Below are positions 35,672-51,480 of a stretch of 64,000 nucleotides of DNA, in pieces. The notes under the pieces were generated by a model. It ran no database searches and was not told where the DNA came from. It saw nothing but the letters and a program-made list of their open reading frames with translations. This DNA comes from Thermoanaerobaculia bacterium (GTDB lineage: Bacteria > Acidobacteriota > Thermoanaerobaculia > UBA5066): the NCBI GenBank assembly GCA_963719225.1, contig CAVRAY010000001.1, positions 192,001-256,000 of the forward strand, written 5' to 3'. The stretch's first letter is position 1. Every line of letters starts with the position of its first letter. The position numbers and the translations under genes were made by a program.

Positions 35672-35755
35672 CGAAGACTCCTTCGAAGCCGCTCCGTCAG
35701 CAGGGGTGCGGTTCACGAGGAAGTGTCGACCGGAAGGACGAGCTTTCCCCTGCCG

Positions 35756-38700
35756 TCAGTACTCGGCCGCCGGGAGCATCCTCAGGACGCTGCCGTCGGA
35801 GGTCTTCCCGTCGTTCAGTACGCCGTACGCGAGCCAGGTGTCGTCGCCGGAGAGCCGTGTGACGACCGCGTAGGCTGCCGTCGTCGAGGCGGGCACCCCC
35901 GCGGTGTCGAAAACGGACGACCACTGCGTCCAGTCGCCCGGCTGGAGCGTGACGGTGACCGGTATGCCCACGGCCAGCGAGGTCGTGGCGTCGTAGAGGC
36001 GCACGGACAGGGAGAGCGGGATCTCCGAGCCCCCGCCCAGATGGACGACCGCCAGATTCGAGCGCACGGAGGCGTCCCGCGCGAGACCCGGCACGAGCGC
36101 CGAGATTCGCGCGCCGCCTCCTTGCGCCGCGGCCGGATAGGCGACGCCGAACGCGCCGCCGGTGGCCACATCGGTGTTCGGGGTCGTCGTGCGCGCGAGC
36201 GCGACGGTCTTCGGCGAATCGAGGTTGCCGAGGTTTCGGAACGCCACGGAAAGCGTGCCGGCCTGGGGACCGGTCGACGGATCCGGGATGTTGATCCCCC
36301 GTAACCTCAGGTACGCGAGGATGTCCGGAATCGTCGTCTGCTGGTGCGCGGCGAGCGTGAAGGTCACGACGGGGACGCCGGTCGAGGATCCGAATCCTGG
36401 CGCCGGCCGATAGACGAGGTCCACGGGCGTAGAGAAGTTCCCGTCGTTCGCGACCGTCAGCTCGGTCGTGTAATGCGATCCGGCGGCGCCGAACACGTCG
36501 AGGACGACGGGCACGACGAGCTTGCGTGCGGCCGCGAGTCCGCCCGGGCGATAGAGCGGCAGGATCGAGCCGTCGGAGGTCTTCGCGTCGTTCACGACGC
36601 CATATGCCGTCCACGCGCCGATCCCGCTCGTCCTCGTGATCTTCGCGTAGCCGTACGCAGGCTCCGCGAGGCCCGCCTGCAGGAGGACTCCGTTGAACTG
36701 CCTCCACTCGCCCCGATGCAGCGTCGTGACGAGGGGCGCACCCGAGGGCGCTCCGCTCTGGTCGTACACCTGTATCGAGAGCGTCGAGGTCCCGTCGCCG
36801 CGGCCCGGGAGATGACCGACCGCGAGATTGGACCGGGACGTGCCGGAGATGCTGCGCAGCCCGTAGACCGCCCCCTCGTCCTCGGCGGCCTCGAGGTCGG
36901 ACGGCGCGTCGAGGAACGTGCCGAAGCTGCCCGAGGCGCCGGCAGTGTAGGCACGGGAAAATGCATAGACGTCATCGGTTGAAGAGGCGGTGTTTGCGGC
37001 TGAGATCGAGACCGAGCCGGCCGTACCGGAAGGGCCGGGCGCGATCACGAGAGCGTGGTCGCGGAAGAACTGGAGGGCGTCCGCTGCGCGAATCTCCGAG
37101 GAGGGCGCGAGGTCCACCGAGACGGCGCCGCCCCCGGCAAGTCCGAAGTCGGGCGCGGGGAAGAACTCCACCAGAACCGTCGCGGGCGAGGCCGACCGAT
37201 TCCCGATCGTGAGGTCCGAGCGGAAGCGCGCTCCGGTGGCCCCGACGACGTCCAGGACCACCGGGATGTACTTCGTGGAGGAGGAAACCGGCGCCCGATA
37301 GAGGCCGCTCCCCGCCGTGCCCGTATACAGCTGCGATCCGTCGGCGCTCAGATGGACGACTCGCGCGTCGACGCCTGGCGGAAGGCCCGCATTCTCCGGC
37401 TGCCAGCCGCCGCTCGTCCTTCGGAGAACGCCCGCCGTTCCCCCGCCCGCGAACGCCTTTCCGCCGCCTGCGTCGAGGGACGTCACGAACGCGGTGCTCG
37501 CTCCGAAGTCGTCCTCGCGCCACTGGCCCGTCGACGAAAAGATCCCGCCGGACACGGGCGCGGCGAAGAGGACGTTCGCGTCACCCCCGAGCGCCCGGAC
37601 GCCCGCGGGTGCGCCGGAGACTGCCTGCCAGGTCTGCGCGCGGACGAAGAGGTTTCCGCTCACGGAGGCGTAGAGCTTTCCGGCGACTTCGCGCGTCGTC
37701 TGCACCGCTCCGTTCGCGGGGAGCCCCGCGTTGTCGGAAGACCACGTGCTGGCCACGAGCCGCCACATTCCCGCGTTCGACGTGCCGCCCGCGATGCTGC
37801 CGCCGGAGACCGCGGCGAGCGACGTGATCGAGACGCCGAGTGGCAAGCCGCTCTCGACGATCGAGGGCGGCGCCTGCAACCCCGGCCCGAGCCCCCAGGC
37901 GTAGAGGTGGCAGTTCGTCGCGGCGAAAAGGCTCAGCGCGTTGCTCGCGATTGCGCCCACGTTCCCGCAGCCTTCCGGGGCGAGATTCACGGCGGGAGCG
38001 AAATCCAATGCGAGGCCCGCGCCGTGCGCGGCCGCAGCGGTTACTCCGCCGACCGTTTTCACGTCCGAGATGGAGGCCGCCCAGAGGCCGGTTCCCGCGG
38101 GGCTCCACGATCCGCTGGAAAGCCGTGCGACGGGAGCGCCGGCCGTGCCGACGTAGAGATCGCTTCCCAGCGTGCCGAAGCTCTTCGCCGACGCGACGAG
38201 AAGACCCGCATTCGTGGCTTGCCAGGAGCCCAGGAACGAGAGAACTCCGGCGTCCGCGGTCGCCGCACGCAGAGTTCCGCCGGCACCCGTGATGGCGCGC
38301 ACGTCGTGCGCCCCGAAGCCGGAGATCGGGACCCAGGCTCCCCCGAACGAATAGAGCGTCTGGTCGGTGCCCGCATAGAGCGTGCCGTTCGCGACACCGA
38401 GGGCCTGGACCGTGGAGGTCGAGGGAAGGCCGGTCGAGATCGAGGTGACGGTCGCGCCCGCGTACTGCGCGGCGCCGCCGCGCAGGCCGACGACGAGATC
38501 GCCGGACGTGACGGCCGCGGCCGTCACGAGCCCGCCGGGATTCGCGAGGAGCGCCCACGATCCGGAGGAGCGCTTCGCGACGCCGAGTCCCGCGGCCCAC
38601 ACGGAGGTCCCGTCCGTCGCCAGGAGAGACGGAAAGACGAGGCCGGCGGGAAGGGCTTCGGCGCTCCATGTTCCGTCGGCGGCGCGCCTCCACACTTTTT

Positions 38701-38989
38701 CTCCGTCGGCCGCGTAGACGGTTTCGGCAACGGCGATCGACGAAATCCTCTGCGCCGAGAGCCCGTCGAAAGTCCACGTGCCGGCGTCCATGCGCCAGAC
38801 TCCGCGCGACGTGGCGGCCCAGAGAGTCGCGCCGCTTCCGGCGAGCGCGGGGACGTCCGCGCCGGGGAGCGTGTTCGCGGGAACGAAGACCAGGCCCGCG
38901 TTCGAGGGCAAAGCGGCCAGCAGAACCATAAGGAGCGCGACCCGGATGGCGGGGGCGGGCAAACCCCGGAACTCGAAATGTCGTCTCAT
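35756..38989 (-). CDS. Large secreted beta-propeller protein with two C-terminal copies of the same module type
   Basis: Repeated LYAGT/W...N.GLP blades; C-terminal IPVVLDV.GA.GA.F/Y..NDAKTSDG twice. Confidence 0.75.
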   Translation of the reverse strand: MRRHFEFRGLPAPAIRVALLMVLLAALPSNAGLVFVPANTLPGADVPALAGSGATLWAATSRGVWRMDAGTWTFDGLSAQRISSIAVAETVYAADGEKVWRRAADGTWSAEALPAGLVFPSLLATDGTSVWAAGLGVAKRSSGSWALLANPGGLVTAAAVTSGDLVVGLRGGAAQYAGATVTSISTGLPSTSTVQALGVANGTLYAGTDQTLYSFGGAWVPISGFGAHDVRAITGAGGTLRAATADAGVLSFLGSWQATNAGLLVASAKSFGTLGSDLYVGTAGAPVARLSSGSWSPAGTGLWAASISDVKTVGGVTAAAAHGAGLALDFAPAVNLAPEGCGNVGAIASNALSLFAATNCHLYAWGLGPGLQAPPSIVESGLPLGVSITSLAAVSGGSIAGGTSNAGMWRLVASTWSSDNAGLPANGAVQTTREVAGKLYASVSGNLFVRAQTWQAVSGAPAGVRALGGDANVLFAAPVSGGIFSSTGQWREDDFGASTAFVTSLDAGGGKAFAGGGTAGVLRRTSGGWQPENAGLPPGVDARVVHLSADGSQLYTGTAGSGLYRAPVSSSTKYIPVVLDVVGATGARFRSDLTIGNRSASPATVLVEFFPAPDFGLAGGGAVSVDLAPSSEIRAADALQFFRDHALVIAPGPSGTAGSVSISAANTASSTDDVYAFSRAYTAGASGSFGTFLDAPSDLEAAEDEGAVYGLRSISGTSRSNLAVGHLPGRGDGTSTLSIQVYDQSGAPSGAPLVTTLHRGEWRQFNGVLLQAGLAEPAYGYAKITRTSGIGAWTAYGVVNDAKTSDGSILPLYRPGGLAAARKLVVPVVLDVFGAAGSHYTTELTVANDGNFSTPVDLVYRPAPGFGSSTGVPVVTFTLAAHQQTTIPDILAYLRLRGINIPDPSTGPQAGTLSVAFRNLGNLDSPKTVALARTTTPNTDVATGGAFGVAYPAAAQGGGARISALVPGLARDASVRSNLAVVHLGGGSEIPLSLSVRLYDATTSLAVGIPVTVTLQPGDWTQWSSVFDTAGVPASTTAAYAVVTRLSGDDTWLAYGVLNDGKTSDGSVLRMLPAAEY

Positions 38990-39090
38990 TTGGCGTGCCT
39001 CGGGCGCCCGAGAGCGCCTTTTTGCAGTGTACATGGCACGACCTGTGCGAATCACGCCCCTGGGGGACGGATTTCCAGAAGGAGAAAATC

Positions 39091-39414
39091 ATGAATCCAA
39101 AGCCCTCTTTCCGATGGTGCGCTACCGGGGCCGCGGCTCTGGCGGCCGCTCTTCTCGGTTCGTGTGTCGTTGGGCCTCCGCCGGGCGCCGTCTACGTGCG
39201 AACGCGTCCACCCGCTGACATCGTCGAGGTCCGGGGAGTGGCTCCGGGACCCGGCCATGTCTGGATCTCGGGCTACCACGCGTGGCGCGGCGGGGTCTAC
39301 GTCTGGGTGCCCGGACACTGGGACGCTCGTCCTCATCCGCGCGCCGTGTGGGTGCGCGGAAGATGGAGACAGCATCGCAATGGCTGGTACTGGATCGAAG
39401 GGCACTGGAAGTAA
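39091..39414 (+). CDS. YXWGXW/WXXGXW-repeat small lipoprotein
   Basis: SD AAGGAG; lipobox LGSC; VWISGYH.W, YVWVPGHW, VWVRGRW, WIEGHW. Confidence 0.88.
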   Translation: MNPKPSFRWCATGAAALAAALLGSCVVGPPPGAVYVRTRPPADIVEVRGVAPGPGHVWISGYHAWRGGVYVWVPGHWDARPHPRAVWVRGRWRQHRNGWYWIEGHWK

Positions 39415-39621: not shown

Positions 39622-40647
39622 TTGACGGCGCGCCTCCCGAAAACAGAGTCGCTCCCCCGCGCGCTCGGGCAATTTCTATTCGAAGAAAATCTTCTCTCCA
39701 AGGCCCGCGCGAGGCGCCTTCTCGAAACGCTCGTCGAGACGGTCCGCGCGCTGCGGGCTGCGGCTGTGGAGGTCGTCGCGCTGAAAGGCGCGGCCCTGGC
39801 GTTCTTCCATTATCCGGATCCTGCCCTCCGTCCGATGGGGGATCTCGACCTCCTGCTGCGCGACCCGCGTCAGCTCGGGCAGGCGACCGCCGTCCTCGTC
39901 GGAGGCGGCTGGATCGCTCTCTTCGACACACCGCGCCACCGCGTCTTCGCACGGCCCGGCGAGCGCGTCGCGCGGCCCGCCGCCGAGGATCCGGAGAACC
40001 CGATCCGGCTCGAGATCCACACGTCCTTTCGCCTGCCCGTGCTCGGCGGCCTCTACGACGCGAGTGCGGCGCTGCGCGCCCAGTCGGAAACACGGGATGT
40101 GGACGGCACGGCCGTCGCGATCGCGGCTGGTGCCGCGCTGGTGCCGCACCTCCTCTTCCACGCCGCCGAGGACTTCGCGGGAAACGGGATCCGGGGGATC
40201 CAGGCGTACGACTTCCGCCTCCTCGCGCGGGCGGGCGGCGCTCTCGCGCCGGAGATTTCTGCGAATGAAAGATCGGGCGGAAGTCGCCGAGGAGCCGCCC
40301 CACTGCTGTATGCGGCGGACGCGATCGAGCGTCTCTTCCCTCTTACTTTCAAAGAAGTCTTTCTTTCTTCTCTCTCCTCTAACGTCAATCCGGCCCTGCG
40401 CGCGCGCGCAGCAGCGCTGCCGGCGCTGCGTTATTCGCGCCCCGCGCGCGGCTGGACGCGGGTGCTCCTGTCGCTCGTGGAGGGTCCCGTTCCGCGCGCG
40501 CGTTTTCTCATGCGCACGCTCTTTCCGACGCTGGGCGAAGTGAAGGCGAATGCGGCACCGGACGCGACGGGGTTGGCGCTCGCCGCGGCCTGGGTGCGCG
40601 TCCTCCTCGGCCGCGCCGGCCTTCGACGCCGCCGAGGGCCGCGATGA
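39622..40647 (+). CDS. Nucleotidyltransferase family protein (NTP_transf_5-like); true start probably further upstream
   Basis: LKGAAL...YPDPALRPMGDLDLL, LEIH, HLLFH; frame open back to 39415. Confidence 0.8.
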   Translation: MTARLPKTESLPRALGQFLFEENLLSKARARRLLETLVETVRALRAAAVEVVALKGAALAFFHYPDPALRPMGDLDLLLRDPRQLGQATAVLVGGGWIALFDTPRHRVFARPGERVARPAAEDPENPIRLEIHTSFRLPVLGGLYDASAALRAQSETRDVDGTAVAIAAGAALVPHLLFHAAEDFAGNGIRGIQAYDFRLLARAGGALAPEISANERSGGSRRGAAPLLYAADAIERLFPLTFKEVFLSSLSSNVNPALRARAAALPALRYSRPARGWTRVLLSLVEGPVPRARFLMRTLFPTLGEVKANAAPDATGLALAAAWVRVLLGRAGLRRRRGPR

Positions 40648-42668
40648 AGGGGTCGGTCGGCATCGTCGCCCGCGCCGCACTCGCGGGAGCGCTCGCGATG
40701 ACGGCCTTCGGAATCGTCGAGATCTGGTTCACGGAGCTCTCCGTTTGGGCTTTTCACCGGGGCGCCTTCGCGCCGCTCGAGCGCCCCTTCGCCGCGGTGC
40801 TCTTCCTCCTCTATCCGCTCCTGGGAGCGCTGGCGGCGTCCTTCGCCGCGGCAGCCGCGGGAGCTGCGGGAGTCGCCCTCCAGGGCCGTGCGCTCGGCGC
40901 GCTCGTCGTCCTCGTCGTCCACTTCGTCTTCCGCCTTCCGGCGTACGCGGGCGGCTCCCAGGTCCTTCTTTTCGGGTTGAACGCCATCCTTTTCGGGACC
41001 TCCCTCGCGGCGACCGTGTTCCCGCGTGCGCCGCGCGCGCTCGATGTCTTCACGGGCCCCTGGACGGTCGCGCTGCTTCTCGGCGCCCCGCCCTGGGTGA
41101 TGACCGAGCTCCTCGCGGAGGCGTCCCGGCCCGTGCGTGCGCTCGGATTCGCGACGACGGTCTGCGCCGTCGCCGGGTCCGCTCTCGCGGCTGCGCGCGT
41201 CAACCCCCGTCCCCGGGTCTTCGCCGGGGCGAGCGCGGCCGCCGTGCTGGTGACGCTCGGCGCCGTCTTCGTCGCCGATTCCGGCGCTCCGCGGCAGGCC
41301 GCGGAGACGGGCGCGGCGGTCCCGCGCGGGCCGAACGTCCTTCTCGTGGTCCTCGACACCGTGCGCGCGGACCACCTCTCGCTCTACGGATATCCGCGCA
41401 AGACGATGCCGCATCTCGAGCGCTTCGCGGCGACGGCAACCGTATACACGCGGGCGATCGCGCCGTCGAACATGACGCTCGCGACGCACGCGTCTCTTTT
41501 CACGGGTCTCGCCGCGAGCGAGCACCGTGCGCATTACGACGCGGGACGCCCGGCCGGGCGGCCGCTCGGTACCTCCATGCCCACGCTCGCCGAGAACTTC
41601 GCGAAGAAGGGCTATGACGTGAGCAGCGTGGCCGGGAACTACGGCTTTCTGGGATCTGGCTTCGGCCTGGACCGCGGCTTTTCCTGGAACGATGCACGGG
41701 CACGGCGGAGCACGCTGGGGGTGATCCCCGCGGTCTCGGTCCGCGGCGCGTTCCGCCGGTTCCTTTGCCGGACGCTCGGGCTGTGGCCCGAGAGCGACAC
41801 GCGCGCCCGCGGCGCGGACGAGATCACAGATCTCGCCATCGGCCGGATCGACCGCGCGAAGACCCTCGGCAGCCCGTACTTCCTCTTCGTGAACTACTTC
41901 GACGCGCACGAACGCGTCCTCGTCCCTCCTCCGTGGGCCGGATCCTTCTCCTCGCGAGACGCGCGTCCGACTGGGCCGCTCTTCGAGGCGCGGCTCCGCG
42001 AGATGAACGCCACCGGCCGCGTCTCGATCGATTCCCGAGACCGCGAAGATCTCGTCGCCCGATACGACGAGACCCTCGCTTACCTCGACGCGTCGCTCGA
42101 CCGCCTCCTCGCGCACGCGGCCGGGTCGGACGGACAGGCGGATACGCGGATCGTCGTGACCTCGGACCACGGGGAGGCCCTGGGGGGGCATGACGCGATC
42201 GGCCACGGCTCGAGTCTCTATGACGAGCAGGTGCGTGTGCCCCTCGTCGTGCGCCAGCCCCGTCAGGCGAGCGGGCGCGTGATCGGGGAGCCCATCGGGA
42301 TCGCGGGCGTCTACGAATTCCTTTCGGGCGGATCGCCTGAAGTGCGTGTGGAGGACCCCGTCGTGTCCGAGTCCTTCCCTCTCGTCCCGACGCCCGAGAA
42401 GCCCGGCGTGCGTGGCGGTCGCGCGCTCTTCTCGGGGCCGCACGTCTATGTCCGGGGGATCGACGGGCGCGTCGAGCTCTACGACATGCGCGAGGATCCG
42501 GGCGAGTTGCGGGATCTCTCGGCCGTTCCCGACTTTCGAGGCGCCGTGGCTGGCGCATCAACCCGTCTCGACCGCTGGATTGCGGCCCATCCTCCGCAGC
42601 GCGCGCCCGAGACGCGCGAGAGCCGCGAGGACCGGGCGCGGCTTCGCGCGCTGGGATACCTGCGATGA
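40644..42668 (+). CDS. Membrane-anchored sulfatase/alkaline-phosphatase-superfamily enzyme
   Basis: Several N-terminal TM helices; PNVLLVVLDTVRAD, TLATHASLFTG, NYFDAH, YDE...LD, TSDHGE, VPLVV, ELYD..DPGE, LRALGY. Confidence 0.85.
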   Translation: MKGSVGIVARAALAGALAMTAFGIVEIWFTELSVWAFHRGAFAPLERPFAAVLFLLYPLLGALAASFAAAAAGAAGVALQGRALGALVVLVVHFVFRLPAYAGGSQVLLFGLNAILFGTSLAATVFPRAPRALDVFTGPWTVALLLGAPPWVMTELLAEASRPVRALGFATTVCAVAGSALAAARVNPRPRVFAGASAAAVLVTLGAVFVADSGAPRQAAETGAAVPRGPNVLLVVLDTVRADHLSLYGYPRKTMPHLERFAATATVYTRAIAPSNMTLATHASLFTGLAASEHRAHYDAGRPAGRPLGTSMPTLAENFAKKGYDVSSVAGNYGFLGSGFGLDRGFSWNDARARRSTLGVIPAVSVRGAFRRFLCRTLGLWPESDTRARGADEITDLAIGRIDRAKTLGSPYFLFVNYFDAHERVLVPPPWAGSFSSRDARPTGPLFEARLREMNATGRVSIDSRDREDLVARYDETLAYLDASLDRLLAHAAGSDGQADTRIVVTSDHGEALGGHDAIGHGSSLYDEQVRVPLVVRQPRQASGRVIGEPIGIAGVYEFLSGGSPEVRVEDPVVSESFPLVPTPEKPGVRGGRALFSGPHVYVRGIDGRVELYDMREDPGELRDLSAVPDFRGAVAGASTRLDRWIAAHPPQRAPETRESREDRARLRALGYLR

Positions 42669-42961
42669 CGGAGCAGCGTGTCCTCGCGCGCGGCGAGGTG
42701 CACGTGAACGAGCGCTTCGGCCCGGACGTCGTCAACCGCGGCGCGCTCCTCTACTCGTGTGAATGGGACGGCGGCGTTTTCGAGTCCGGAGTGATGTGGG
42801 GCGGTCTGTTCAGGTCGGGCCGATTTCTCGGCGGCGCGTTCTGGGGAGGATGGTGGCTCGGCGGCGCGTGGGAAGGCGGCTTCTGGCACAGCGGTTTCGG
42901 GCCTGACGGGCGCTATCTTTCGCGCGACGACGCCCCGGTTCCGCGGAGCGGAAGCGCGTGA
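42665..42961 (+). CDS. Small Gly/aromatic pentapeptide-repeat protein A
   Basis: Coupled to both neighbours (ATGA, GTGA); 9 units of [W/F/M]-x-[G/S]-G-x; paralogue at 44865-45146. Confidence 0.8.
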   Translation: MTEQRVLARGEVHVNERFGPDVVNRGALLYSCEWDGGVFESGVMWGGLFRSGRFLGGAFWGGWWLGGAWEGGFWHSGFGPDGRYLSRDDAPVPRSGSA

Positions 42962-43833
42962 CGAGTGTCCTCACCGTCTTCACGGCTTCGGCGCGGCTCG
43001 ACCTCGCGCGCCTCTGGCTGGCCTGCGTGACACGGGCCTTCCCTCGAGGCGAGGTCGTCGTCGAGATCTTCGACGACTCGAAGGACGGCGTTCTGACGCC
43101 GGGCCTTCTCCCGGACGCCGCCGTCCTTCGTCCCGGTCCCTCGCGTCGCGACTTTCAGGAGGCCTACAACGACGCGCTCCAACGCGCGTCGACTCCGTTC
43201 CTCGTCCTCCTCGACACGGACGCGTTCGCGACCTCGGCCCACGTCTGGCCGGCGGTGCGCGAGCGTTTCGCGGACGAAGGCGTCGCCGCCGTCTCGTGCG
43301 CGCCGCGAACGGCGACGCCGGGACACGACACGGTCGCCCTCGTGCTGAGGGTGTCGGCCTATCGCGCGGCGCTCGCGGACGTGCCCGGCGGCTTTCTTCC
43401 ACGCGCCGACCGGCCGGAGCCCGGCAGCCCCCCGGGGCGCTGGTCCGGCCACGACACGGGAGACCTTCTCACGCGCGCCGTCTGTGAGTCGGGGGGGAAG
43501 CACGAGGTCCTCCATCTCGAGGAGGCCGGTTCCTTCGTGCGTTTCGACGCTCTCACGAACGTGCACCTCCTCGCCATCTGGGCCGGCGCCAATCCGCTCC
43601 TTTCGCTGGTGCGGCGTGACGCCTATTTTCGGGAGGGGTGTCTCGGGAACCTCGCACTCAGGCCGATTTACGAAAGGAGGTTTCCCGAAGGGCCGCCCTT
43701 CGCGTTCGGCCTCTCCCGCGCGATGCTCTGGACGGCGCTCGCGTCCGGCGGCCTCGCCACGCTGCGCGACGGAATGAAGCGGGCACGGCGGATGCGCGCC
43801 GGCGCCCGGCGCGTCGAGGAGTTCCTGCGCTGA
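42958..43833 (+). CDS. GT-A/GT2-like glycosyltransferase A
   Basis: DLARLW, AYNDAL..A.TPFLVLLDTD (DxD), VAAVS, DTGD; paralogous to 43843-44868. Confidence 0.6.
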   Translation: MTSVLTVFTASARLDLARLWLACVTRAFPRGEVVVEIFDDSKDGVLTPGLLPDAAVLRPGPSRRDFQEAYNDALQRASTPFLVLLDTDAFATSAHVWPAVRERFADEGVAAVSCAPRTATPGHDTVALVLRVSAYRAALADVPGGFLPRADRPEPGSPPGRWSGHDTGDLLTRAVCESGGKHEVLHLEEAGSFVRFDALTNVHLLAIWAGANPLLSLVRRDAYFREGCLGNLALRPIYERRFPEGPPFAFGLSRAMLWTALASGGLATLRDGMKRARRMRAGARRVEEFLR

Positions 43834-43842
43834 AGAAAGGCG

Positions 43843-44868
43843 TCAGTCGCGGCGGCCGAAGAGGCGCCGCGCCGCGGCCCATGCGTGCGCTTCGAGGATG
43901 CGTCGCGGCGGGAGGACGCGCGGAATGCGCAGGGCGCCCGGCGTGAGCCCCTCCTGGGCGGCGAGCCGGGCGAGCGCGCGGTCGGACCTCTCGAAAGTGG
44001 CGACGAGGCGGGCGAGGAGCGTCCGGTCGCGGATCGTCGCGAACGCCGCGCGCAGCACCTCGGGAGTCGCGCTTCCCGAAAGGTGCGTGTCGCTGTACGG
44101 GGCCGAAAAGAGCGCGGGTTGACGGGCCGCCGCAAACGGCGCGCCGAAGACCTTTCGATAGAGGGATCCGAGAAGGAGATTGTCGTACGCCCCCATCGCG
44201 AAGTACGGCTTCTCGGCGAAGAGCTGGTCGAAGCGCGGTCCGAGGAGGTCGCCGAAGACCTCGCGCGAGGCGCGCACGACGGTCGTGCCGTGAAAGTCCG
44301 CGAGGCGCGAGGCGGCGACGTCGGGCGCCACCTCGACGATCACCTTGCCGCGCGCGCGCAAGGCGATCGCCGCGCGGTCCCCCGGCTGACGGTTGATCGC
44401 GTGCGGCCACCGTTCGATCCCTTCGTAGGAGGGCGCGAGGACGGGCGCCGGAAGAGCGCGGTAGGTCTCGCGCCGCGCGAGAAGCGCGAAGACGCCGGGC
44501 TGGTCGGTGCGGCGGACCAGAGAGACTCCCGCGACCGTGGGGTCCTCGAAGTGGCCGAGGAGGGAGGCGACCCAGCCCCCGTCGAGGATGAAGACGTCCG
44601 CGTCGAGAAGAAAGAGAACGTCGCACGGCCGCTCGAGCGCGAGGTCGTAGAAGGCGATGAAGTCGAGAGCCTCGAGAGAGGGCGCGAGGAGCGTCGCTCC
44701 GGGAAAGAACCTCGGCTCGAAGCCCTCGGGCGTCGTGTCGCGGAAGAGAAGGACTTCCACCTGGGCCCCGACGCGTTTCAGCGCGGGAAGGAGGTCCCGC
44801 GCTACGGACCGGAACCAGAGACGGGCGAGATCCGGATACCGGTGCGCGGAGGCGACGACGACCTTCAA
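43843..44868 (-). CDS. GT-A/GT2-like glycosyltransferase B
   Basis: TTG start overlapping upstream stop; DLARLW, FYDLAL...DVLFLLDADVF (DxD), VAGVS, PGD. Confidence 0.6.
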   Translation of the reverse strand: MKVVVASAHRYPDLARLWFRSVARDLLPALKRVGAQVEVLLFRDTTPEGFEPRFFPGATLLAPSLEALDFIAFYDLALERPCDVLFLLDADVFILDGGWVASLLGHFEDPTVAGVSLVRRTDQPGVFALLARRETYRALPAPVLAPSYEGIERWPHAINRQPGDRAAIALRARGKVIVEVAPDVAASRLADFHGTTVVRASREVFGDLLGPRFDQLFAEKPYFAMGAYDNLLLGSLYRKVFGAPFAAARQPALFSAPYSDTHLSGSATPEVLRAAFATIRDRTLLARLVATFERSDRALARLAAQEGLTPGALRIPRVLPPRRILEAHAWAAARRLFGRRD

Positions 44869-45146
44869 GGATGCACGGTGCGGGGGTGGTATTTCCCGTC
44901 GGGACCGAAGCCGTGCTCCCAGTCGCCGCCCTGCCAGTCACCGCCCAGCCACACGCCGCCCCAGAACACGCCGCCTCGAAACGTGCCGGACCGGAAGAGC
45001 CCGCCCAGCATGACGCCCGATTCGAAGACGCCCCCGTCCCACGTGCACTCGAGGAGGACGGCGCCGCGGTTCACCGTCGCGTGGCCGAACGACGTCTTGT
45101 GGTGAAACTCGCCTTCCTGGAGAACGAGAACGGGCGCGTCGGGCAT
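44865..45146 (-). CDS. Small Gly/aromatic pentapeptide-repeat protein B
   Basis: Starts 1 nt after amidohydrolase stop; shares VNRGA, C.WDGGVFESGVM.GGLFRSG, FWGG.WLGG, GFGPDG.Y with protein A. Confidence 0.8.
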   Translation of the reverse strand: MPDAPVLVLQEGEFHHKTSFGHATVNRGAVLLECTWDGGVFESGVMLGGLFRSGTFRGGVFWGGVWLGGDWQGGDWEHGFGPDGKYHPRTVHP

Positions 45147-45147
45147 G

Positions 45148-46227
45148 TCACGCGATGATACGGCGCAGGTCCGGCACGAGGCGGAAAGCCTTCTCTGCGA
45201 TCGACGCGAGCGGTGAGATCACGTGCTTCGTCACGCCTCCGACGGTGAGCGCCTCCGCGGGAATTCCCGCCGCGTCGAAAACCGCCGCATGCCTCTCGTC
45301 CGCGAGAACCGGACGCCCTTCCACGAGGACGAGCAGGACATCCCGCGGCGCGGCTTCGAGGAGCGGCGCGTCGAGGGCGACGACGTCCGCGCGCGAGCCC
45401 GGCTCGAGGGACGCGGGGGGAAGGAAGAGCCGCCGTCTCGCCGTGGCTCCGACCGCTTCCTCGAGCCGCGCGTCCTCGAGGAAGCCGAGCGCGCGCGCGG
45501 CGCGCAGCTCGTCGAGCAGGGTCCCTTCGCCGCTGACGAGGGCGTCGGTCCCGAGGAGCACGTCGATTCCCGACGTGAAGAGAGCCTGCGGCGCCGTCCT
45601 TCCGTAGAGGAAACCGTTCGAGGTCGGACACCACACGGCGGCGCAGCCGGCGGCCGAGAGCCGGACGACTCCCGCCGGGGAGGCGCCCACGAGATGGACC
45701 GCGACCAGCCGGTCCGAGAGAAGGCCGCGCCGCGCCGCCTCGTCGATCTCGGAAGCCGATCCTTCGTCGGTTCCTTCCGCTAGGTGAAGCGCCCAGGGGC
45801 CCGCGGCGGGAGGAGAGTCGGCATCTTCGAGGGCGTCGACCGCGGGGATGGGCACGACCTTGACGGGGAAGTCCCGGTCGAATTCCGCCTCCCACGGGTC
45901 GTGGTGGACGACCGAGATCGCGCCGCCGAGGATGTTCTTGAGCGCCCCGAAGAGCAACGCGTCCCGTCTGGGCAGCAGTTTCCGGCGCTCGAGATCGTGG
46001 GCGAAGCGCTCGTGGAGATCCGTCCCCCATGCGGCGGCGCTCGCATAGGGCGGCGCGCCGAGCCGCGGGAGGTGATTGCGGTGGAGGTGGTCGTGCGCAT
46101 TCACGAGCCCCGGAAGAAGAACGGCGCCTCCGAGATCGAGCGTGAGGTCGGCGGTACCGCCGGCTGCCCGGAGCCCTCCTTCGGCGACGTCCAACGTCGC
46201 GTTTTTCGCCTCGAGGCGCAACCTCAT
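45148..46227 (-). CDS. Metal-dependent amidohydrolase
   Basis: LPGLVNAHDHL, LHLAEG, VHLV, WCPTSN, LGTD; ATG overlaps upstream stop. Confidence 0.88.
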   Translation of the reverse strand: MRLRLEAKNATLDVAEGGLRAAGGTADLTLDLGGAVLLPGLVNAHDHLHRNHLPRLGAPPYASAAAWGTDLHERFAHDLERRKLLPRRDALLFGALKNILGGAISVVHHDPWEAEFDRDFPVKVVPIPAVDALEDADSPPAAGPWALHLAEGTDEGSASEIDEAARRGLLSDRLVAVHLVGASPAGVVRLSAAGCAAVWCPTSNGFLYGRTAPQALFTSGIDVLLGTDALVSGEGTLLDELRAARALGFLEDARLEEAVGATARRRLFLPPASLEPGSRADVVALDAPLLEAAPRDVLLVLVEGRPVLADERHAAVFDAAGIPAEALTVGGVTKHVISPLASIAEKAFRLVPDLRRIIA

Positions 46228-46910
46228 TTCGAGAAGCGCAACGCGAGGAGCAGCGGCAGGCCCAGGTCCGCGGCGTACCGGTCGAGCTTCTTCGCACGCT
46301 CGTAGAAGGGCCGCACCTCCACGCCCACGCCAAGCGAGCCCGCCGCGTCGAAGGTGAGCCCCGCCTCCCGCGCGGCGGCTTCGTGGGCGTCCGCGTCGTG
46401 CACGACGTGCTCGACGACGTGCGCGGCTCCGGAAGCGTCGCGAAAGGCGCGCGCGTGCCCGCGACGGATGGCGTCCGGGTGGAAGTCCGTCAGGACGGCA
46501 TATCCGCCCTTGCGAAGGACGCGCGCGAGCTCGCGGTACAGCGGCGCGATGTTCAGGAGGTGCCCGACCGCGAGCCGGCACCACACCACGTCGAAGCGCT
46601 CGGCGGCGAAAGGCAGGGCCCTGAGGTCGCCGCCGGCGGTCGTGCGCGGCCGCGCGGGATCCCGGCGTCCCGCCGCGAGCATCTCGAAGACCAGGTCCAC
46701 CCCGCAGGCGCTCTTCGGAGTCTGCCCCTTCGGGAAGACGAGCCGGCGCGCCGTGCCGCAGGCCGCGTCGAGAAGGCTCTTCCCCTGAATGTCGTGCGAG
46801 AAGAACCGGACGGCGAGCGAGTCCATCGTCGTCAGGGGGTTTTCCACGTCGTACGTCGCCGCCCACAGCCGATACGCGGACGCCGTCCCGAGCGGAGGCT
46901 CGGCGCTCAC
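46224..46910 (-). CDS. Class I SAM-dependent methyltransferase (BioC-like)
   Basis: AY.LWA.TYD, LLDAACGT, LPF....FD, ELARVLRKGG, DFHP. Confidence 0.85.
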   Translation of the reverse strand: MSAEPPLGTASAYRLWAATYDVENPLTTMDSLAVRFFSHDIQGKSLLDAACGTARRLVFPKGQTPKSACGVDLVFEMLAAGRRDPARPRTTAGGDLRALPFAAERFDVVWCRLAVGHLLNIAPLYRELARVLRKGGYAVLTDFHPDAIRRGHARAFRDASGAAHVVEHVVHDADAHEAAAREAGLTFDAAGSLGVGVEVRPFYERAKKLDRYAADLGLPLLLALRFSK

Positions 46911-48274
46911 GCGGGCGGCCTCAGGTGTCCATAGGCCTGTGAATCCGCAGGCACGAGCCCTCCCTTGAGCCGCCGCGCGAAGTCTTCCACACGATCCTTG
47001 AGAGGACGTGACAGCCACGGCACGCGCGGGTCCTCGTGCGTCATCCAGCCGACCCACTCGGGCGTCGTCCATTCCTCGAGGGTCGCGGGCGTGGTCGAGA
47101 GCGGGTCGACGTTTCCATAGGTCGCGCGGCGTTGGGGAGTCGGCGTGTAGAAATACGTGATGAGCTTCATGTCCGGATTCACGGCTGCCAGCTTCTCGAC
47201 GAACGCGAGAGTGGTCTCGACGTCCCGTCCGGGCTCGTCGGGATCGCCGAACATGAACGAGAACTCGGGAACGATGCCGAAGCGGCGGGACTTCTCCGCG
47301 AGGGCGAGCGTCTGGACGGTCGTGAGGTTCTTCGACATCTTCCTGAGAGTCTCGTCGGAGCCGGACTCGGCGCCGAAGTAGGCCATTGTGAGGCCAGAAC
47401 TCCGGAGAGCTTCCCACGTCCGGTCGGAGAATCGCAGCATCACGTCGATCCGGGCCTCGCACCACCACTTCAGCCCGAGCGGCGTCATCCTCTCGGCGAG
47501 CTCCAGGGCGCGGGACTCCTTGAGAAAGAAATTGTTGTCGTAGAAATGCACGGCGTCCATGCCGTGGCGCTTCACGAGGTACGCGAGGTTCTCCTCGATG
47601 CGCGCGGGCGACTCGAATTTCTGAAGGCTTCCGAGCGCCGCGATGACGCCGCAGAAGTTGCAGGTGTACGGGCAGCCGATCGAGGCCTGGTAAACCCCGT
47701 TTCGTTTCCCGAAAGCAGTCGGCTGGAGGTAGTCGTCGACGTCGATCCGGGTCCACGGCAGGGCCGGGAACGCGTCCGGGCCTTCCCAGGCGCGCTCCGG
47801 GTTGAGCCGCGCCTCGCCTCTCTCCTTCCAGCCGAGGCCCTGGACGGCGGCGGGGTCGAGACGTCCCGCCAGGACATCGAGCAGCTCGACGAGCGTGCGC
47901 TCGCCCTGGCCGCGCACGAGGAAGTCGACGTAAGACGCGCGCAGCACGGGGGCGGGGTAGAGACTCGGGAAATAGCCGCCCCAGACGATCGGGAGCATCG
48001 GGAAGCGCTCCTTGAGCCGTCGCGCGAGCGGCGCGGCCGAGACGAGCTGCGGCCCCGGCATGACGGTCATCGCGACGAGCGACACGGGATCGTCCGTGAG
48101 CGCGCGCATCCCGACGCAGGTCGCGACCGCCGCCTCGAGGTCGGAGTCCGGCGGGTTGCCGTCGAGGATCTCCCACGAGACGCCGGAAGGCAGAGCGGCG
48201 CCGAGCGTGAGGAGAGAGAGCGGGAAGCGCCGGTTTTTCGGGCGCGTGGCGCGGGGGTTGAGGAGGAGGATCAC
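46907..48274 (-). CDS. B12-binding radical SAM enzyme
   Basis: N-terminal cobalamin domain (PLSL..L, IVWGG.FP, VRGQGE); CPYTCNFC; FYDNNF; FGAESGS. Confidence 0.9.
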   Translation of the reverse strand: MILLLNPRATRPKNRRFPLSLLTLGAALPSGVSWEILDGNPPDSDLEAAVATCVGMRALTDDPVSLVAMTVMPGPQLVSAAPLARRLKERFPMLPIVWGGYFPSLYPAPVLRASYVDFLVRGQGERTLVELLDVLAGRLDPAAVQGLGWKERGEARLNPERAWEGPDAFPALPWTRIDVDDYLQPTAFGKRNGVYQASIGCPYTCNFCGVIAALGSLQKFESPARIEENLAYLVKRHGMDAVHFYDNNFFLKESRALELAERMTPLGLKWWCEARIDVMLRFSDRTWEALRSSGLTMAYFGAESGSDETLRKMSKNLTTVQTLALAEKSRRFGIVPEFSFMFGDPDEPGRDVETTLAFVEKLAAVNPDMKLITYFYTPTPQRRATYGNVDPLSTTPATLEEWTTPEWVGWMTHEDPRVPWLSRPLKDRVEDFARRLKGGLVPADSQAYGHLRPPA

Positions 48275-48281
48275 GCGCGCC

Positions 48282-49091
48282 TCACGCTCTCCGCGCCACC
48301 CACAGGTCGAAGCGCGAGGGCTCCCGCCTTCCGAGGAGACGGGCCCTGAATCCCCGGGTTTCGTAGGCGAGCGGATAGCGGACGCGGCTCTTCTCGAACG
48401 ACAGCCCTGCGGGCGCGGCGGCGCGAACGAGGATTTCCGGCGTGAGGTATTCGACCGGCTGAAGCGCGAGAAGATCCGCCGCGAGGTCGCGAAAGATCCG
48501 CTCCGTGTCGCGCTTCTTCTCCTCGGCCATGGCCTCCCCCGACGCGGACCGCGCGTAGAAAGGAGAATCGAGTATAGCCACGCGTCCGCCCGGGACGGAG
48601 GCGCGCGCGGCCTCCCCCAGAACGCTTCCGAGATCCTCGGCGAGGTGCAGAGATGCGTCGAAGACCACGAGGTCGAAGACCGCGTCGGGGAAGGGAAGCG
48701 CGTCGAAGGACCCGGAGACGCGGCCGAACATGCGCGGCAGATGCCGCCGGAACGCCGCGCCCGCGGCGAGACCATCGACGTCGTCGATCCGCAGGTCGAC
48801 GGCGACGCACCGGTGCCCGTCGCGGCCGAGGCGCGCGCACAGCCAGCCGTTTCCCGCGCCGAGGTCGAGAACCGCGAGCGCGCGGCCGCGCTCCTTCGCG
48901 AGCGGCGCGACGACGCGGCTCCTCAAGGCCTCGAACGTGCGGGCACGAACCGCCCACTGGTCGGCGAGGGGGCCCGCGGTCACGTACGGCAACGCGAGGA
49001 GCTCGGCTTCTCCCCCCGCGCCACGGCCTTCCGTGCGCCTCAGTTGCGCGTAGGCGCGGGCCCACCGTCGCCGGGAAGATTCGGCGTTCAT
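48282..49091 (-). CDS. Class I SAM-dependent methyltransferase
   Basis: VLDLGAGNGW, AVD, LPFPDAVFDLV, SLH, PGG..ILDSPFY. Confidence 0.85.
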   Translation of the reverse strand: MNAESSRRRWARAYAQLRRTEGRGAGGEAELLALPYVTAGPLADQWAVRARTFEALRSRVVAPLAKERGRALAVLDLGAGNGWLCARLGRDGHRCVAVDLRIDDVDGLAAGAAFRRHLPRMFGRVSGSFDALPFPDAVFDLVVFDASLHLAEDLGSVLGEAARASVPGGRVAILDSPFYARSASGEAMAEEKKRDTERIFRDLAADLLALQPVEYLTPEILVRAAAPAGLSFEKSRVRYPLAYETRGFRARLLGRREPSRFDLWVARRA

Positions 49092-49906
49092 GCGGGAACC
49101 GCCGTCCTTTCGAAGTCGCAAAGCACGTGGTCGCCGAGCAGCGCCAGCGGCCGCGCCGCCAGGCGGTCGAGGCGCTCGAGCGCGCCGAGGAGGCGCGGGA
49201 AGCGCGACGCGGCGGGCTCTGCCGAGCTCGGCGGCACGAAGATCCCGATGCCGAGCGTCCTCCGGAGGCGGAACCACGGCGCGAAGGAGGAGGCGAGCGT
49301 CCGCGGCGAGGGATAGGTCACGGTGAACGTTTCGCCTCCCACGCGCGCCGGCGCGGGGGAACCTACAAACCTCCGGAACGCCGCGCGCGCCCTGCCCCGC
49401 GCCAGGAGGACGAGGACCTCGCCGGGGCAGCTCGGGCCGAAGAGGACGAGAAGGGCGCGCCGTCCCGTGGGAAGGAGGCGCGCAAGGCCGCGGGCGACGG
49501 AACCATGGTCCGCCACGCAGTTCAAAGACGCGAAGTTCGAGAACGCGCCGTCGAAGATCGTGCCGCTGCGCGCAGCCGCCCACGTATCGAGCTCCTCGAG
49601 CGAAACGCGCTCCGACGTGACGCGTTCGCCGAGAGCCGCAGCGCGGGCTTTCTCCGCGGCGCGTCCCACCATCGCGGGCGCTCCATCCGTGACGAGAACG
49701 CGGCGTCCACGCTCGGCGAGGAAGATCGCGTCCTCGCCGGTGCCGCCTCCGAGCTCGATCAGCGTGGCGCCCACCGGAAAGGCCTCGAGAAGCGCGCCCC
49801 GCACCGCGCGACGCTGGGCCGCGACGCTCCTCCACCCCGAGAACCGCTCGTCGAACGAGGGAGCGAGGGCGTCGAAGGCGCGGACCGCCGGGGAGAGATG
49901 ATGCAT
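49088..49906 (-). CDS. Class I SAM-dependent methyltransferase (alternative GTG start at 49936)
   Basis: AFD.LA..FD, LIELGGGTGEDA, TD...M, FDGAFSNF. Confidence 0.85.
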   Translation of the reverse strand: MHHLSPAVRAFDALAPSFDERFSGWRSVAAQRRAVRGALLEAFPVGATLIELGGGTGEDAIFLAERGRRVLVTDGAPAMVGRAAEKARAAALGERVTSERVSLEELDTWAAARSGTIFDGAFSNFASLNCVADHGSVARGLARLLPTGRRALLVLFGPSCPGEVLVLLARGRARAAFRRFVGSPAPARVGGETFTVTYPSPRTLASSFAPWFRLRRTLGIGIFVPPSSAEPAASRFPRLLGALERLDRLAARPLALLGDHVLCDFERTAVPA

Positions 49907-49940
49907 CGGCTCTGAAGTGACGTCCCCGAAGCTCACGCGT

Positions 49941-51422
49941 TCATACGCGCATGAGATCGATGGGAGTCGGATCGGCGGGAGGGCGGGGCGGGGCGGCGCG
50001 GAATCCGGCTTCGATCGCGTCGAGCATGCTCCACCGCTCGTCCAGGGCCTTTGCGCCGTTCTGCCCCTCGTCACCCGGCGACGTGTAGGCGGTGACCTCC
50101 GCGTGCAGAAGGTCGCGAACGTGCCGGTAGAAAGACTCCTCGTACGTTCCCTTGAACATCATCGCGAGGTCGTCGCTGTCGCGCCAGTTCGAGCGCGGGC
50201 CGAGCTGTCCCTTGACCGTCTCGTAGAATTTCGTGCCGGGAAGCGGATACGACACCGAGACGCCGATGTCGTCCGGCCGCTCCTCGAGGACGAGCGCGCG
50301 CGTCGCGACGAGGTCCTCCCACGTCTCGCCCGGATAGCCGAGCTGGAGGAACCACGCGGGGCGGATTCCGTGGCTGCGGAGGAGGCGCGTCGCCGTGCGC
50401 ACCTGTTGGATACGCGTGCCCTTTTCCATCGCGTCGAGGATGTTCTGCGCGCCCGACTCGACGCCCATCCACACTTCCTCGGCCCCCGCGCGCGCGAGGG
50501 CGGCGACGGCCGAGGGCGTCATGAGGTCCACGCGCGACTGCATCATGAACGGCACGCGGACGCCTTCCTGCGCGAGGGCTTCGGCATACGACTCGATCCA
50601 CCGCGGCGTCAGGCCGAAGATATCGTCCGCGAACCAGAGGTGGTCGGGATGGACGTTCTCGGCGAGCAGGCGCACTTCACGGGCGACGTTCGCGGGGCTG
50701 CGCTGGGCGTAGCGGGTGCCGTAGAGCGGCTTCGCGCACCAGTTGCAGTGAAAGGGGCACCCGCGCGTCGTCACGACGTTCCACGAAAGGCGGCCATGGG
50801 CGTTTTTCCAGGCCGTGCGGTACGCGTCGGCGTCCGCGAGGTCCCAGGCGGGAAAGGGAAGCGCGTCGAGGTTCTCGACGAAGGGCCGGATTCGGGTTCT
50901 CTTCGGCGCGGTGTCGGCCGAGCTCCCGGGGAGCGCGAGTCCGGGGATGCCCTCGAGCACCGCCCTGGGATCGGCCGTCCACGCCTCCGCGAGCTCGGCG
51001 AACGTGACCTCCGGCTCGCCGAGGATCACGGCATCCGCTCCGGCGGCGAGGTAGGACGTCGCATGGTCCGTCGCGTCCGACCCGTTCACGGCGACCAGGC
51101 GCGAGCGCGCGTGGGCCGCGGCCACCATCGCCAGGGCCGCCTCGCGGTTTCGCGTCGTGCACATTTTCGTCAGGAAGTTGAAGTTGTCCTCGAGGATCCC
51201 GACGATCGAGGCGTCCGAAGTATCGAGGGCGCGCACGAACTCGGCCTCGCTTCCAGCGAGCATCGCGTCGAAGAGCTCGACGTCGAATCCGCGCTCGCGC
51301 AGAACCGAAGCGACGAGGAGAGTCGCGAGGGGCGGATACGGTTTCATCTTCCGCCACTGCTTCGCGTCGTTTGCGAGGTAGTAGGAGTGCGCGAGGAGAA
51401 CCTTCGGCCGGGCTCCGCACAT
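49941..51422 (-). CDS. B12-binding radical SAM enzyme (BchE/HpnP-like superfamily)
   Basis: PYPPLATL, GSDATD, ILGEPE, LPFPAWDL, RGCPFHCNWC, FADDIF, MGVESG, GYPGET, YPLPGT. Confidence 0.92.
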   Translation of the reverse strand: MCGARPKVLLAHSYYLANDAKQWRKMKPYPPLATLLVASVLRERGFDVELFDAMLAGSEAEFVRALDTSDASIVGILEDNFNFLTKMCTTRNREAALAMVAAAHARSRLVAVNGSDATDHATSYLAAGADAVILGEPEVTFAELAEAWTADPRAVLEGIPGLALPGSSADTAPKRTRIRPFVENLDALPFPAWDLADADAYRTAWKNAHGRLSWNVVTTRGCPFHCNWCAKPLYGTRYAQRSPANVAREVRLLAENVHPDHLWFADDIFGLTPRWIESYAEALAQEGVRVPFMMQSRVDLMTPSAVAALARAGAEEVWMGVESGAQNILDAMEKGTRIQQVRTATRLLRSHGIRPAWFLQLGYPGETWEDLVATRALVLEERPDDIGVSVSYPLPGTKFYETVKGQLGPRSNWRDSDDLAMMFKGTYEESFYRHVRDLLHAEVTAYTSPGDEGQNGAKALDERWSMLDAIEAGFRAAPPRPPADPTPIDLMRV

Positions 51423-51480
51423 CGCCCGCGAGCCTAATTCAGTCGTTTTGAAAAAAGTGTGACGTGGATTGCCAATTCGG

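Follow-up and report, generated by a model that had tools for sequence, protein, structure and literature searches.

Pentapeptide repeat proteins (PF00805 clan; MfpA, Qnr, CipG) consist of tandem five-residue repeats whose residues i and i-2 point inward, and they fold into a right-handed β-helix. Systems in which a glycosyltransferase is encoded together with a β-helical or Cys-bearing partner include TibA/TibC, SunS and ThuS; in TibA/TibC and the glycocin systems, the partner protein is the exported substrate. The relevant passages of PMC13506006 describe CipG as binding the sugar-nucleotide enzyme GlgC through one face, and those of PMC11046441 assign structural and regulatory roles to the left-handed β-helix (LβH) of AGPase, a triangular β-helix packed on a GT-A-like catalytic domain. 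In this work we describe two small solenoid proteins, each encoded directly upstream of a putative glycosyltransferase (GT), in a stretch of 64,000 nucleotides from a Thermoanaerobaculia bacterium (contig CAVRAY010000001.1, positions 192,001 to 256,000; hereafter the window). The solenoid-GT module is real, coupled and undescribed in the sources searched: no description of the module or of its gene cluster was found in a literature search that covered few subscription journals. On balance we favour the reading that the solenoid is a non-catalytic partner subunit of a GT2-like enzyme, and that the pair serves as a cluster add-on for putative tailoring of an envelope glycoconjugate.

The module in the window comprises the following genes:

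42665-42961, plus strand: solenoid A (P0001), 98 amino acids (aa)
42958-43833, plus strand: GTα (P0002), 291 aa; its start lies inside the solenoid A stop codon
43843-44868, minus strand: GTβ (P0004), 341 aa; its TTG start overlaps the solenoid B stop
44865-45146, minus strand: solenoid B (P0003), 93 aa, a paralogue of solenoid A

As described in the initial annotation of this DNA, both solenoid genes overlap the downstream GT gene and the DxD motif is kept in both GTs; each overlap measures 4 nt. The stop codons of the GTα and GTβ genes are separated by 9 nt, and the four genes form the ends of two convergent operons; neither a sigma-70 promoter nor a terminator-like site was found in the scanned region 42000-46000. 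The genome (4.75 Mb, two contigs, 97% complete) contains two solenoid and two GT copies and no others. Titled relatives belong to Thermoanaerobaculia, Holophagales and other Acidobacteriota. The four proteins matched no family in NCBIfam, PHROGs or PADLOC (0 of 9 proteins at E 0.01 in the scan of PADLOC anti-phage defence models, a result still compatible with a defence role), and no transmembrane segment was predicted in the solenoids, GTα or GTβ.

The repeat units and motifs first quoted for the solenoids are present in both translations. A pentapeptide register with G/A/C at position i-2 and F/W/M/L at position i was found in 10 of 10 units of either protein, a value reached by none of 20000 shuffles (maximum 6); with 10 units each, both exceed the minimum of eight tandem pentapeptide repeats. 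In solenoid A, an N-cap (GE..F G..VNRG) precedes ten G-x-[W/F]-x-x units and a C-cap (GF.xxG.Y..R) follows them; the protein has no hydrophobic segment. Gly occupies 75% of the i-2 positions and F/W 76% of the i positions, and the homologues are of near-constant length and conserved from end to end, with no variable core. Solenoids A and B are 65% identical over 86 aa (dS 1.22, dN/dS 0.29). Against their respective 10 nearest homologues, solenoid A gave dN/dS values (Nei-Gojobori) of 0.17-0.29 and solenoid B values of 0.14-0.38, and the median over 2253 solenoid pairs (pS 0.1-0.6) was 0.36, with 2 pairs above 1. The solenoid genes are thus real and under purifying selection (dN/dS 0.14-0.38), a property on which the initial annotation had made its proposal depend. 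Its separation of the repeat from the classical A(D/N)Lxx pentapeptide family was also borne out, as no match to PF00805 was obtained; among pentapeptide models, none matched solenoid A, and solenoid B reached 15.7 bits with PF13576 against a cut-off of 27.

All 31 solenoid copies in 22 GTDB loci lie directly upstream of, or are fused to, a GT of the GTα/GTβ family. The same arrangement was seen in 55 of 61 metagenome loci, the other six reaching a contig edge, so that the expected linkage of homologues to this GT family was recovered in both collections. Since these loci had been retrieved via the solenoid, unbiased genome samples were searched with solenoid and GT profiles separately. In each sample the two profiles picked out an identical set of positives, 13 among 301 class genomes and 9 among 401 phylum genomes; four genomes occur in both samples, leaving 18 distinct positives, and kin among them are not independent. 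In two genomes, G415 (L133, L134, L135) and G614 (L136, L137, L138), solenoid, GTβ and GTα are located on three contigs and all retained, the solenoid sitting within an operon of radical SAM (rSAM) and methyltransferase genes.

GT fusions, which the initial annotation had suggested looking for, account for 75 of 83 longer solenoid-bearing proteins, with the solenoid at either end (55 solenoid~GTα, 7 X~solenoid~GTα, 9 GTα~solenoid and 4 solenoid~GTβ); linkers in the N-terminal solenoid fusions measure 9-43 residues. L007, L008 and P0032 carry NTP_transf_5 joined to solenoid-GTα in one protein. An apparent sulfatase~solenoid~GTα reading frame of 1083 aa (L110:7665-10916) contains an out-of-frame stretch and is probably explained by a sequencing frameshift instead of a genuine fusion. 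Solenoid genes are fewer than GT genes in 9 of the 18 positive genomes, and GTα genes without a solenoid of their own still retain the residues of the predicted interface. A single solenoid gene would thus often serve the two GTs, and hence the gene ratio is not 1:1. Of the functional 1:1 pair proposed earlier, the coupling stands, given the co-occurrence, the fusions and the complex score reported below; a strict 1:1 gene ratio does not.

GTα and GTβ share 37% identity over 146 aa and a profile-profile probability of 99.8% over 237 columns, in agreement with their description as diverged paralogues. The GTβ model (pLDDT 85) shows a GT-A core; its C-terminal half is helical and had no clear match. 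The model matched GT2 enzymes with a Foldseek probability of 1.00, and its structural matches were BcsA (Z 17.4; root-mean-square deviation (rmsd) 2.5, 170 residues aligned), 6p61 (Z 15.8) and PcManGT (Z 15.2), with nucleotidyltransferases at about 12. A PDB sequence search with the GTβ profile yielded nothing meaningful; the GTα profile matched PcManGT (6yv7) at E 1.1e-6. The GT-A fold assigned initially is thus supported by the GTβ model and by the GTα profile. PF00535 scored 16.9 bits on GTα, below its cut-off of 23.3.

The acidic motifs are D40, D86-T-D88 and D169 in GTα and D89-A-D91 in GTβ, and nearly all GTα and GTβ proteins keep D15, R18, W20, D40, D86, R117, Y135 and an acidic residue at 169. 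D86 and D88 are present in 45 of 45 GTα and the DxD motif in 47 of 54 GTβ proteins. Position 169 is D in 45/45 GTα and D/E in 54/54 GTβ (acidic in 99/99) and, judged by its location in the sequence, may be the equivalent of the GT2 catalytic base. GTβ proteins with a deficient DxD (DGG, DPG, DAG) form a subclade (L009:11424-12443, L012:12757-13776 and four more) in which the solenoid is retained; these are possibly pseudo-enzymes. The C-terminal helices are amphipathic with a moment of about 0.65 (no control value), and peripheral membrane binding by them is possible. GTα and GTβ share with GT2 enzymes (BcsA, PcManGT, SpsA, TarS/TarP) the GT-A core (Z 14-17, rmsd 2.5-3.6, about 170 residues), the DxD motif and conserved acidic residues. 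They differ in an identity of at most 17% in the listed structural matches, Pfam scores below cut-off, an unmatched helical C-terminal half, the lack of a transmembrane segment and a dedicated solenoid partner. They are best read as a new GT2-like subfamily of putative glycosyltransferases.

Modelling of GTα with solenoid A, a check proposed at the outset, gave a docked complex with an ipSAE of 0.88 in three runs, compared to 0.34 for the best of 3 controls. The runs shared at least 97% of contacts, and the partner pLDDT was at least 91. The mark used for this score was reached by 116 of 157 solved pairs and 2 of 215 mismatched pairs and is roughly applicable with our own alignments. PDB searches revealed no similar complex, although in relatives GTα and solenoid A are encoded as the two parts of one fused gene. 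The predicted interface comprises solenoid residues 10-17, 28-33, 42-48, 58, 60, 63, 65 and 75-89 and GTα residues 59, 64-68, 144-162 and 205-221. Under a 15-residue coil, the solenoid side would correspond to a single face, which over the 86 homologues is 76% hydrophobic, together with an edge and the two caps. DxD and D166-D169 were not named among the contacts, an unnamed residue being uncertain, not excluded; the solenoid is thus predicted to dock beside, not in, the catalytic site of GTα. His at solenoid position 75 occurs with GTα partners only (20 of 29; 0 of 54 with GTβ), but as this pattern follows one clade it was not counted as co-evolution. Given the genomic coupling and the modelled complex, we consider it quite probable that the solenoid is a partner subunit of the GT.

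The AlphaFold2 (AF2) model of the solenoid is all-β (pLDDT 93, pTM 0.83). Right-handed β-helices matched it with low rmsd, led by bactofilin (Z 7.8, rmsd 3.0, 82 residues aligned) and followed by TibA (Z 7.1, rmsd 3.6), BacA (Z 6.9, rmsd 2.6) and classical pentapeptide proteins (Z 5.5-5.9); all Z values lie below 8, the guide value of the tool. Left-handed β-helices matched only as mirror images, with an rmsd of about 10-11. Foldseek returned nothing for the solenoid model at E ≤ 0.001, and the solenoids had no match to the bactofilin Pfam model at E up to 0.05. Model and matches agree with the compact β-solenoid predicted in the initial annotation. As for the aromatic ladder postulated there, the i/i-2 register implies that it most likely lies buried as the core of the coil and does not form a glycan-binding surface.

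A solenoid profile search retrieved 427 proteins at E ≤ 0.001, and most of the 150 listed are long repeat proteins. The C-cap motif is common to 22 of 127 distant repeat proteins, one of which (P0092) is probably a mis-called family member. Of 126 distant proteins, 92 have a tract of ten or more units; across these 92, identity peaks at lags 15 and 30, the lag-15 excess of 0.050 was reached in 0 of 1000 unit shuffles, and lag 20 showed no excess. Further, the interface residues within the repeat (n=17) fall on two of three faces of a 15-residue coil but on all four faces of a 20-residue coil, and triangular folds rank first among the structural matches of the solenoid. The modelled coil is therefore probably triangular, with three pentapeptides per turn (15 residues). 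The solenoids resemble pentapeptide repeat proteins in their tandem five-residue units and in the predicted inward i and i-2 positions and right-handed helix. Unlike these, they carry Gly at i-2 and Trp/Phe at i in ten units with conserved caps, the evidence leans to three instead of four units per coil, and the partner is a GT2-like enzyme that would be contacted on its catalytic domain.

Long proteins combining the G-x-W/F repeat, 15-residue periodicity and the C-cap include P0046, P0051, P0053, P0059, P0078 and others, as well as L089. They are mostly without a Pfam or PHROG family, and some possibly stem from large phages. For the wider repeat family, a phage link is no more than a lead, namely an Atlas match of 0.87 (89% viral) and weak PHROG matches for 2 repeat tracts; one 385-kb viral contig matches the repeat only (32%). 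A more far-reaching view, which we regard as speculative and rather doubtful, is that an unnamed family of triangular 15-residue-coil solenoids (G-x-[W/F]-x-x, GF/YDxxGxY cap), widespread in long, partly phage-like repeat proteins, had its ten-unit form recruited as an exchangeable adaptor. This adaptor would activate a new class of two-chain GTs, set the acceptor, serve both paralogues and possibly tether kinase and nucleotidyltransferase, with solenoid plus GTβ as a travelling, self-sufficient two-gene cassette.

A working model can be put forward for the partner-subunit reading. The solenoid gene is translationally coupled or fused to a GT of the GTα/GTβ family almost everywhere it was found. 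In the protein, Gly at i-2 and Trp/Phe at i are predicted to pack the core of 15-residue coils, and a hydrophobic face (positions 28/43/58 and 30/45/60/75) together with the conserved C-cap (78-89) would clamp the 144-162 loop, the R64-E68 segment and helix 205-221 of the GT, next to the cleft but excluding DxD and D169. The subunit may thereby stabilise the enzyme or complete its acceptor side, comparable to CipG with GlgC and to the β-helix of NDP-sugar pyrophosphorylases (AGPase, GlmU, GMPP), where a triangular β-helix is likewise packed on a GT-A-like domain. In those enzymes the LβH is left-handed and part of the same chain, whereas the solenoid is predicted to be right-handed and is either a free subunit or fused at either end; moreover, the best matches of GTα/GTβ are glycosyltransferases. 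One solenoid type might serve both GTα and GTβ. With an NDP-sugar as donor, the heterodimer would then glycosylate an envelope glycoconjugate precursor on the cytoplasmic side, and the neighbouring B12-radical-SAM, methyltransferase, kinase and nucleotidyltransferase enzymes would tailor the same precursor, with the module as an optional add-on. An envelope glycan as substrate is suggested by the genes next to related clusters, which encode GT4, GT9, PMT_2-like GT-C, GT87, Wzy_C, a Polysacc_synt flippase fusion, sulfotransferases, PIG-L and GDSL proteins; we consider the chances of this part of the model evenly balanced.

If the model is true, any GT-A enzyme dependent on a separate β-helix subunit would escape notice when expressed on its own, and this requirement may explain the apparent inactivity of such orphan GT2-like proteins. 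The pair is a small, soluble, testable putative heterodimer and a candidate for the first structure of the unnamed, putatively three-repeat-per-coil solenoid family, found also in many long uncharacterised proteins. It further offers a way into an undescribed B12-radical-SAM cluster found in soil Acidobacteriota.

Several observations weigh against the favoured reading or parts of it. Regarding the enzyme, the GT assignment derives from fold, DxD and profile similarity and its activity is a prediction; PF00535 scored 16.7-22.8 bits against the cut-off of 23.3 in the GTα-type proteins that match and did not match GTβ (P0004), and the second Asp of DxD is replaced by Gly in 6 of 54 GTβ proteins. 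Binding of the solenoid to the GT is a model score obtained for the GTα pair, and the strongest fold match of the solenoid reaches just Z 7.8. Concerning the coil, the lag identity within the family is highest at 10 (0.346), followed by 15 (0.292) and 20 (0.283), and does not discriminate, and the spread in face hydrophobicity is 0.77 under four units per coil versus 0.45 under three. Among the 83 longer proteins, four HprK-like~solenoid and one NTP_transf_5~solenoid fusion are without a GT, in addition to three other proteins; as the solenoid is also fused to whichever gene lies upstream, fusion is promiscuous and no proof by itself. The envelope-glycan substrate is deduced from neighbour genes. 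Finally, 27 of the 36 rSAM-bearing class genomes are without the module and 4 of the 13 module genomes without rSAM, and lower-GC loci (one titled Candidatus Acidoferrum) carry solenoid plus GTβ alone among unrelated genes.

The same heterodimer might instead make another product, either a soluble small molecule or cofactor of the rSAM cluster or a modified nucleotide or nucleic acid. The absence of transmembrane segments from solenoid and GT would suit such a product, as would the rSAM, methyltransferase and amidohydrolase content, which is typical of a small-molecule pathway; on the other hand, envelope-type genes recur around the larger cluster. A dUTPase gene adjoins solenoid plus GTβ in nine lower-GC loci, on either side, although this link may represent one inherited insertion site. 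A 91% viral cluster was found in the Atlas among the nearest matches of the GT (score 0.97); the viral fold matches are generic GT-A, however, no phage record matched GTα or GTβ in tblastn searches at E 0.01, and there was no PHROG or PADLOC family match. We judge such a product to be unlikely.

It is improbable that the solenoid is itself the acceptor, its surface being glycosylated by the GT as TibA is by TibC, or its Cys as in glycocin S-glycosylation. TibA ranks with the best fold matches, the Foldseek matches of the GT include ThuS and SunS, and C32 (86/86), Y84 (85/86) and R87 (82/86) are near-invariant and lie within the predicted interface. Yet C32 would occupy an inward i-2 position, Ser/Thr positions vary, and the predicted contacts leave out D86/D88 and D166-D169. 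In contrast to the TibA/TibC, SunS and ThuS systems, the solenoid has no hydrophobic segment that could act as export signal, frequently occurs in fusions and is placed by the model outside the catalytic pocket; being permanently fused at one end or the other suits a subunit better than a substrate that is turned over.

We also attach little likelihood to a bactofilin-like polymer or scaffold that gathers GTα, GTβ, kinase and nucleotidyltransferase. Like bactofilins, which supply the best right-handed match, the solenoid is predicted to be a small right-handed, probably triangular β-helix; it is also found fused to HprK-like and NTP_transf_5 proteins, and a conserved charged surface (E40 86/86, R50 84/86, D35 79/86) lies outside the predicted GT interface. 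Unlike bactofilins, it has a strict G-x-W/F repeat and no sequence match to the bactofilin Pfam family. Both caps take part in the modelled GT interface, which would block end-to-end stacking, and the two-gene cassette persists without the other cluster enzymes.

A precursor peptide with modified Ser residues, an option of the initial annotation, is very unlikely: for such a ribosomally made peptide with post-translational modification (RiPP), processed by GT, kinase, nucleotidyltransferase and rSAM enzymes, speak the adjacent rSAM genes and a pair of kinase and nucleotidyltransferase enzymes that, in the relevant passages of PMC9266682, phosphorylate and glycosylate the lasso peptide pseudomycoidin, a precedent that does not fit because the solenoid is confidently modelled as compact, prone to fusion at both ends and devoid of an invariant Ser (S41 66/86, S51 69/86, S76 22/86), quite apart from its near-constant length without a variable core, the lack of a peptidase, RiPP recognition element, cyclase, exporter or other transporter among the scanned neighbours and the rSAM cluster without solenoid in 27 of 36 genomes.

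The partner-subunit module is embedded in a larger gene cluster. Its remaining genes in the window (39622-52503) are the following:

39622-40647, plus strand: NTP_transf_5 nucleotidyltransferase, upstream part of the plus-strand operon
40644-42668, plus strand: membrane-anchored sulfatase-superfamily protein with 5 predicted hydrophobic segments; its stop overlaps the solenoid A start
51481-52503, minus strand: HprK-related kinase-like protein, upstream part of the minus-strand operon (45148-52503)
49941-51422, minus strand: B12 radical SAM protein, upstream part of the minus-strand operon
between 49941-51422 and 46907-48274, minus strand: two methyltransferases
46907-48274, minus strand: second B12 radical SAM protein, upstream part of the minus-strand operon
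between 46907-48274 and the amidohydrolase, minus strand: methyltransferase
45148-46227, minus strand: amidohydrolase, the last gene before solenoid B

The cluster thus combines NTP_transf_5, an HprK-like kinase, two B12 radical SAM proteins, three methyltransferases, an amidohydrolase and a membrane sulfatase-like protein. None of its proteins reaches the cut-off of an NCBIfam equivalog, TIGR04352 being matched at E 3.9e-7, and plasmid records contained no match to the rSAM gene. The rSAM gene is present in 36 of 301 class genomes, and one genome (G264) carries the full rSAM cassette with the module absent. The module is best read as an optional plug-in to the B12-radical-SAM/methyltransferase cluster. 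Clusters of B12-radical-SAM, methyltransferase, amidohydrolase, GT4, nucleotidyltransferase and HprK-like genes were also seen in L140 and L142-L149. Another recurrent member of the cluster is a protein of about 320 aa whose C-terminal domain is flavin-reductase-like and whose gene often lies directly beside the solenoid-GT genes (L008, L011, L021, L024-L026, L061, L116, L139, L140).

The stand-alone cassettes indicate that solenoid plus GTβ is the minimal module, the product of which may be independent of the larger cluster. The adjoining dUTPase gene (L017, L022, L023, L058, L060, L062, L071, L072, L082) is located upstream in six loci and downstream in three, and was confirmed by Pfam for L022 only. 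Integrase- or transposase-like fragments, judged by eye, adjoin some of these cassettes.

The initial annotation had interpreted the locus as an inverted duplication of the solenoid-GT pair, which is not upheld: the GT genes do not align as DNA, the GT clades are separate and the solenoids were duplicated within lineages. At the DNA level, only the solenoid genes align between the units (75% over 199 nt), and no long inverted repeat joins the two. In a tree of GT domains (n=99; midpoint root, long branches flagged), GTα (45) and GTβ (54) fall on opposite sides of a single branch (support 100), fully separated across all lineages. The solenoid tree (n=86, 90 columns, many open forks) places A and B inside one 49-row group (97/82), and solenoids upstream of GTα appear in several places (a 22-row clade, a 6-row fused clade and three unresolved rows). 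On these trees, GTα and GTβ are ancient paralogues and the solenoid gene was duplicated later. The split form of solenoid A is a 10-row clade (99/92) nested in the 22-row clade, whose remaining members are fused, and the split of solenoid A from GTα likely arose by fission of a fused form. A frameshift artefact behind the split was rejected because the split form recurs in this 10-row clade and in 26 short database proteins.

Solenoid, GTβ and GTα occur in tandem in L018, L020, L024-L026, L048 and L112-L114, and elsewhere the units lie apart. GT4 and GT9 genes separate the units in L009, L012, L013 and L016; orthologues of both are absent from this genome. An ancestral solenoid-GTβ-GTα operon may thus have been followed by solenoid duplications that gave GTα its own, often fused copy; in the present lineage the fused copy would have split again, and the two convergent operons would have met after loss of the intervening GT4/GT9 genes.

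Further upstream, a small protein with WXXGXW repeats (PF12779) is encoded just before the plus-strand operon (38995-39414, plus strand) and kept in about 10 related loci. Two large secreted-looking proteins without a Pfam family (947 and 1057-1099 aa) are encoded at 32828-38929 on the minus strand, and the larger of them flanks the module in 23 loci of this lineage.

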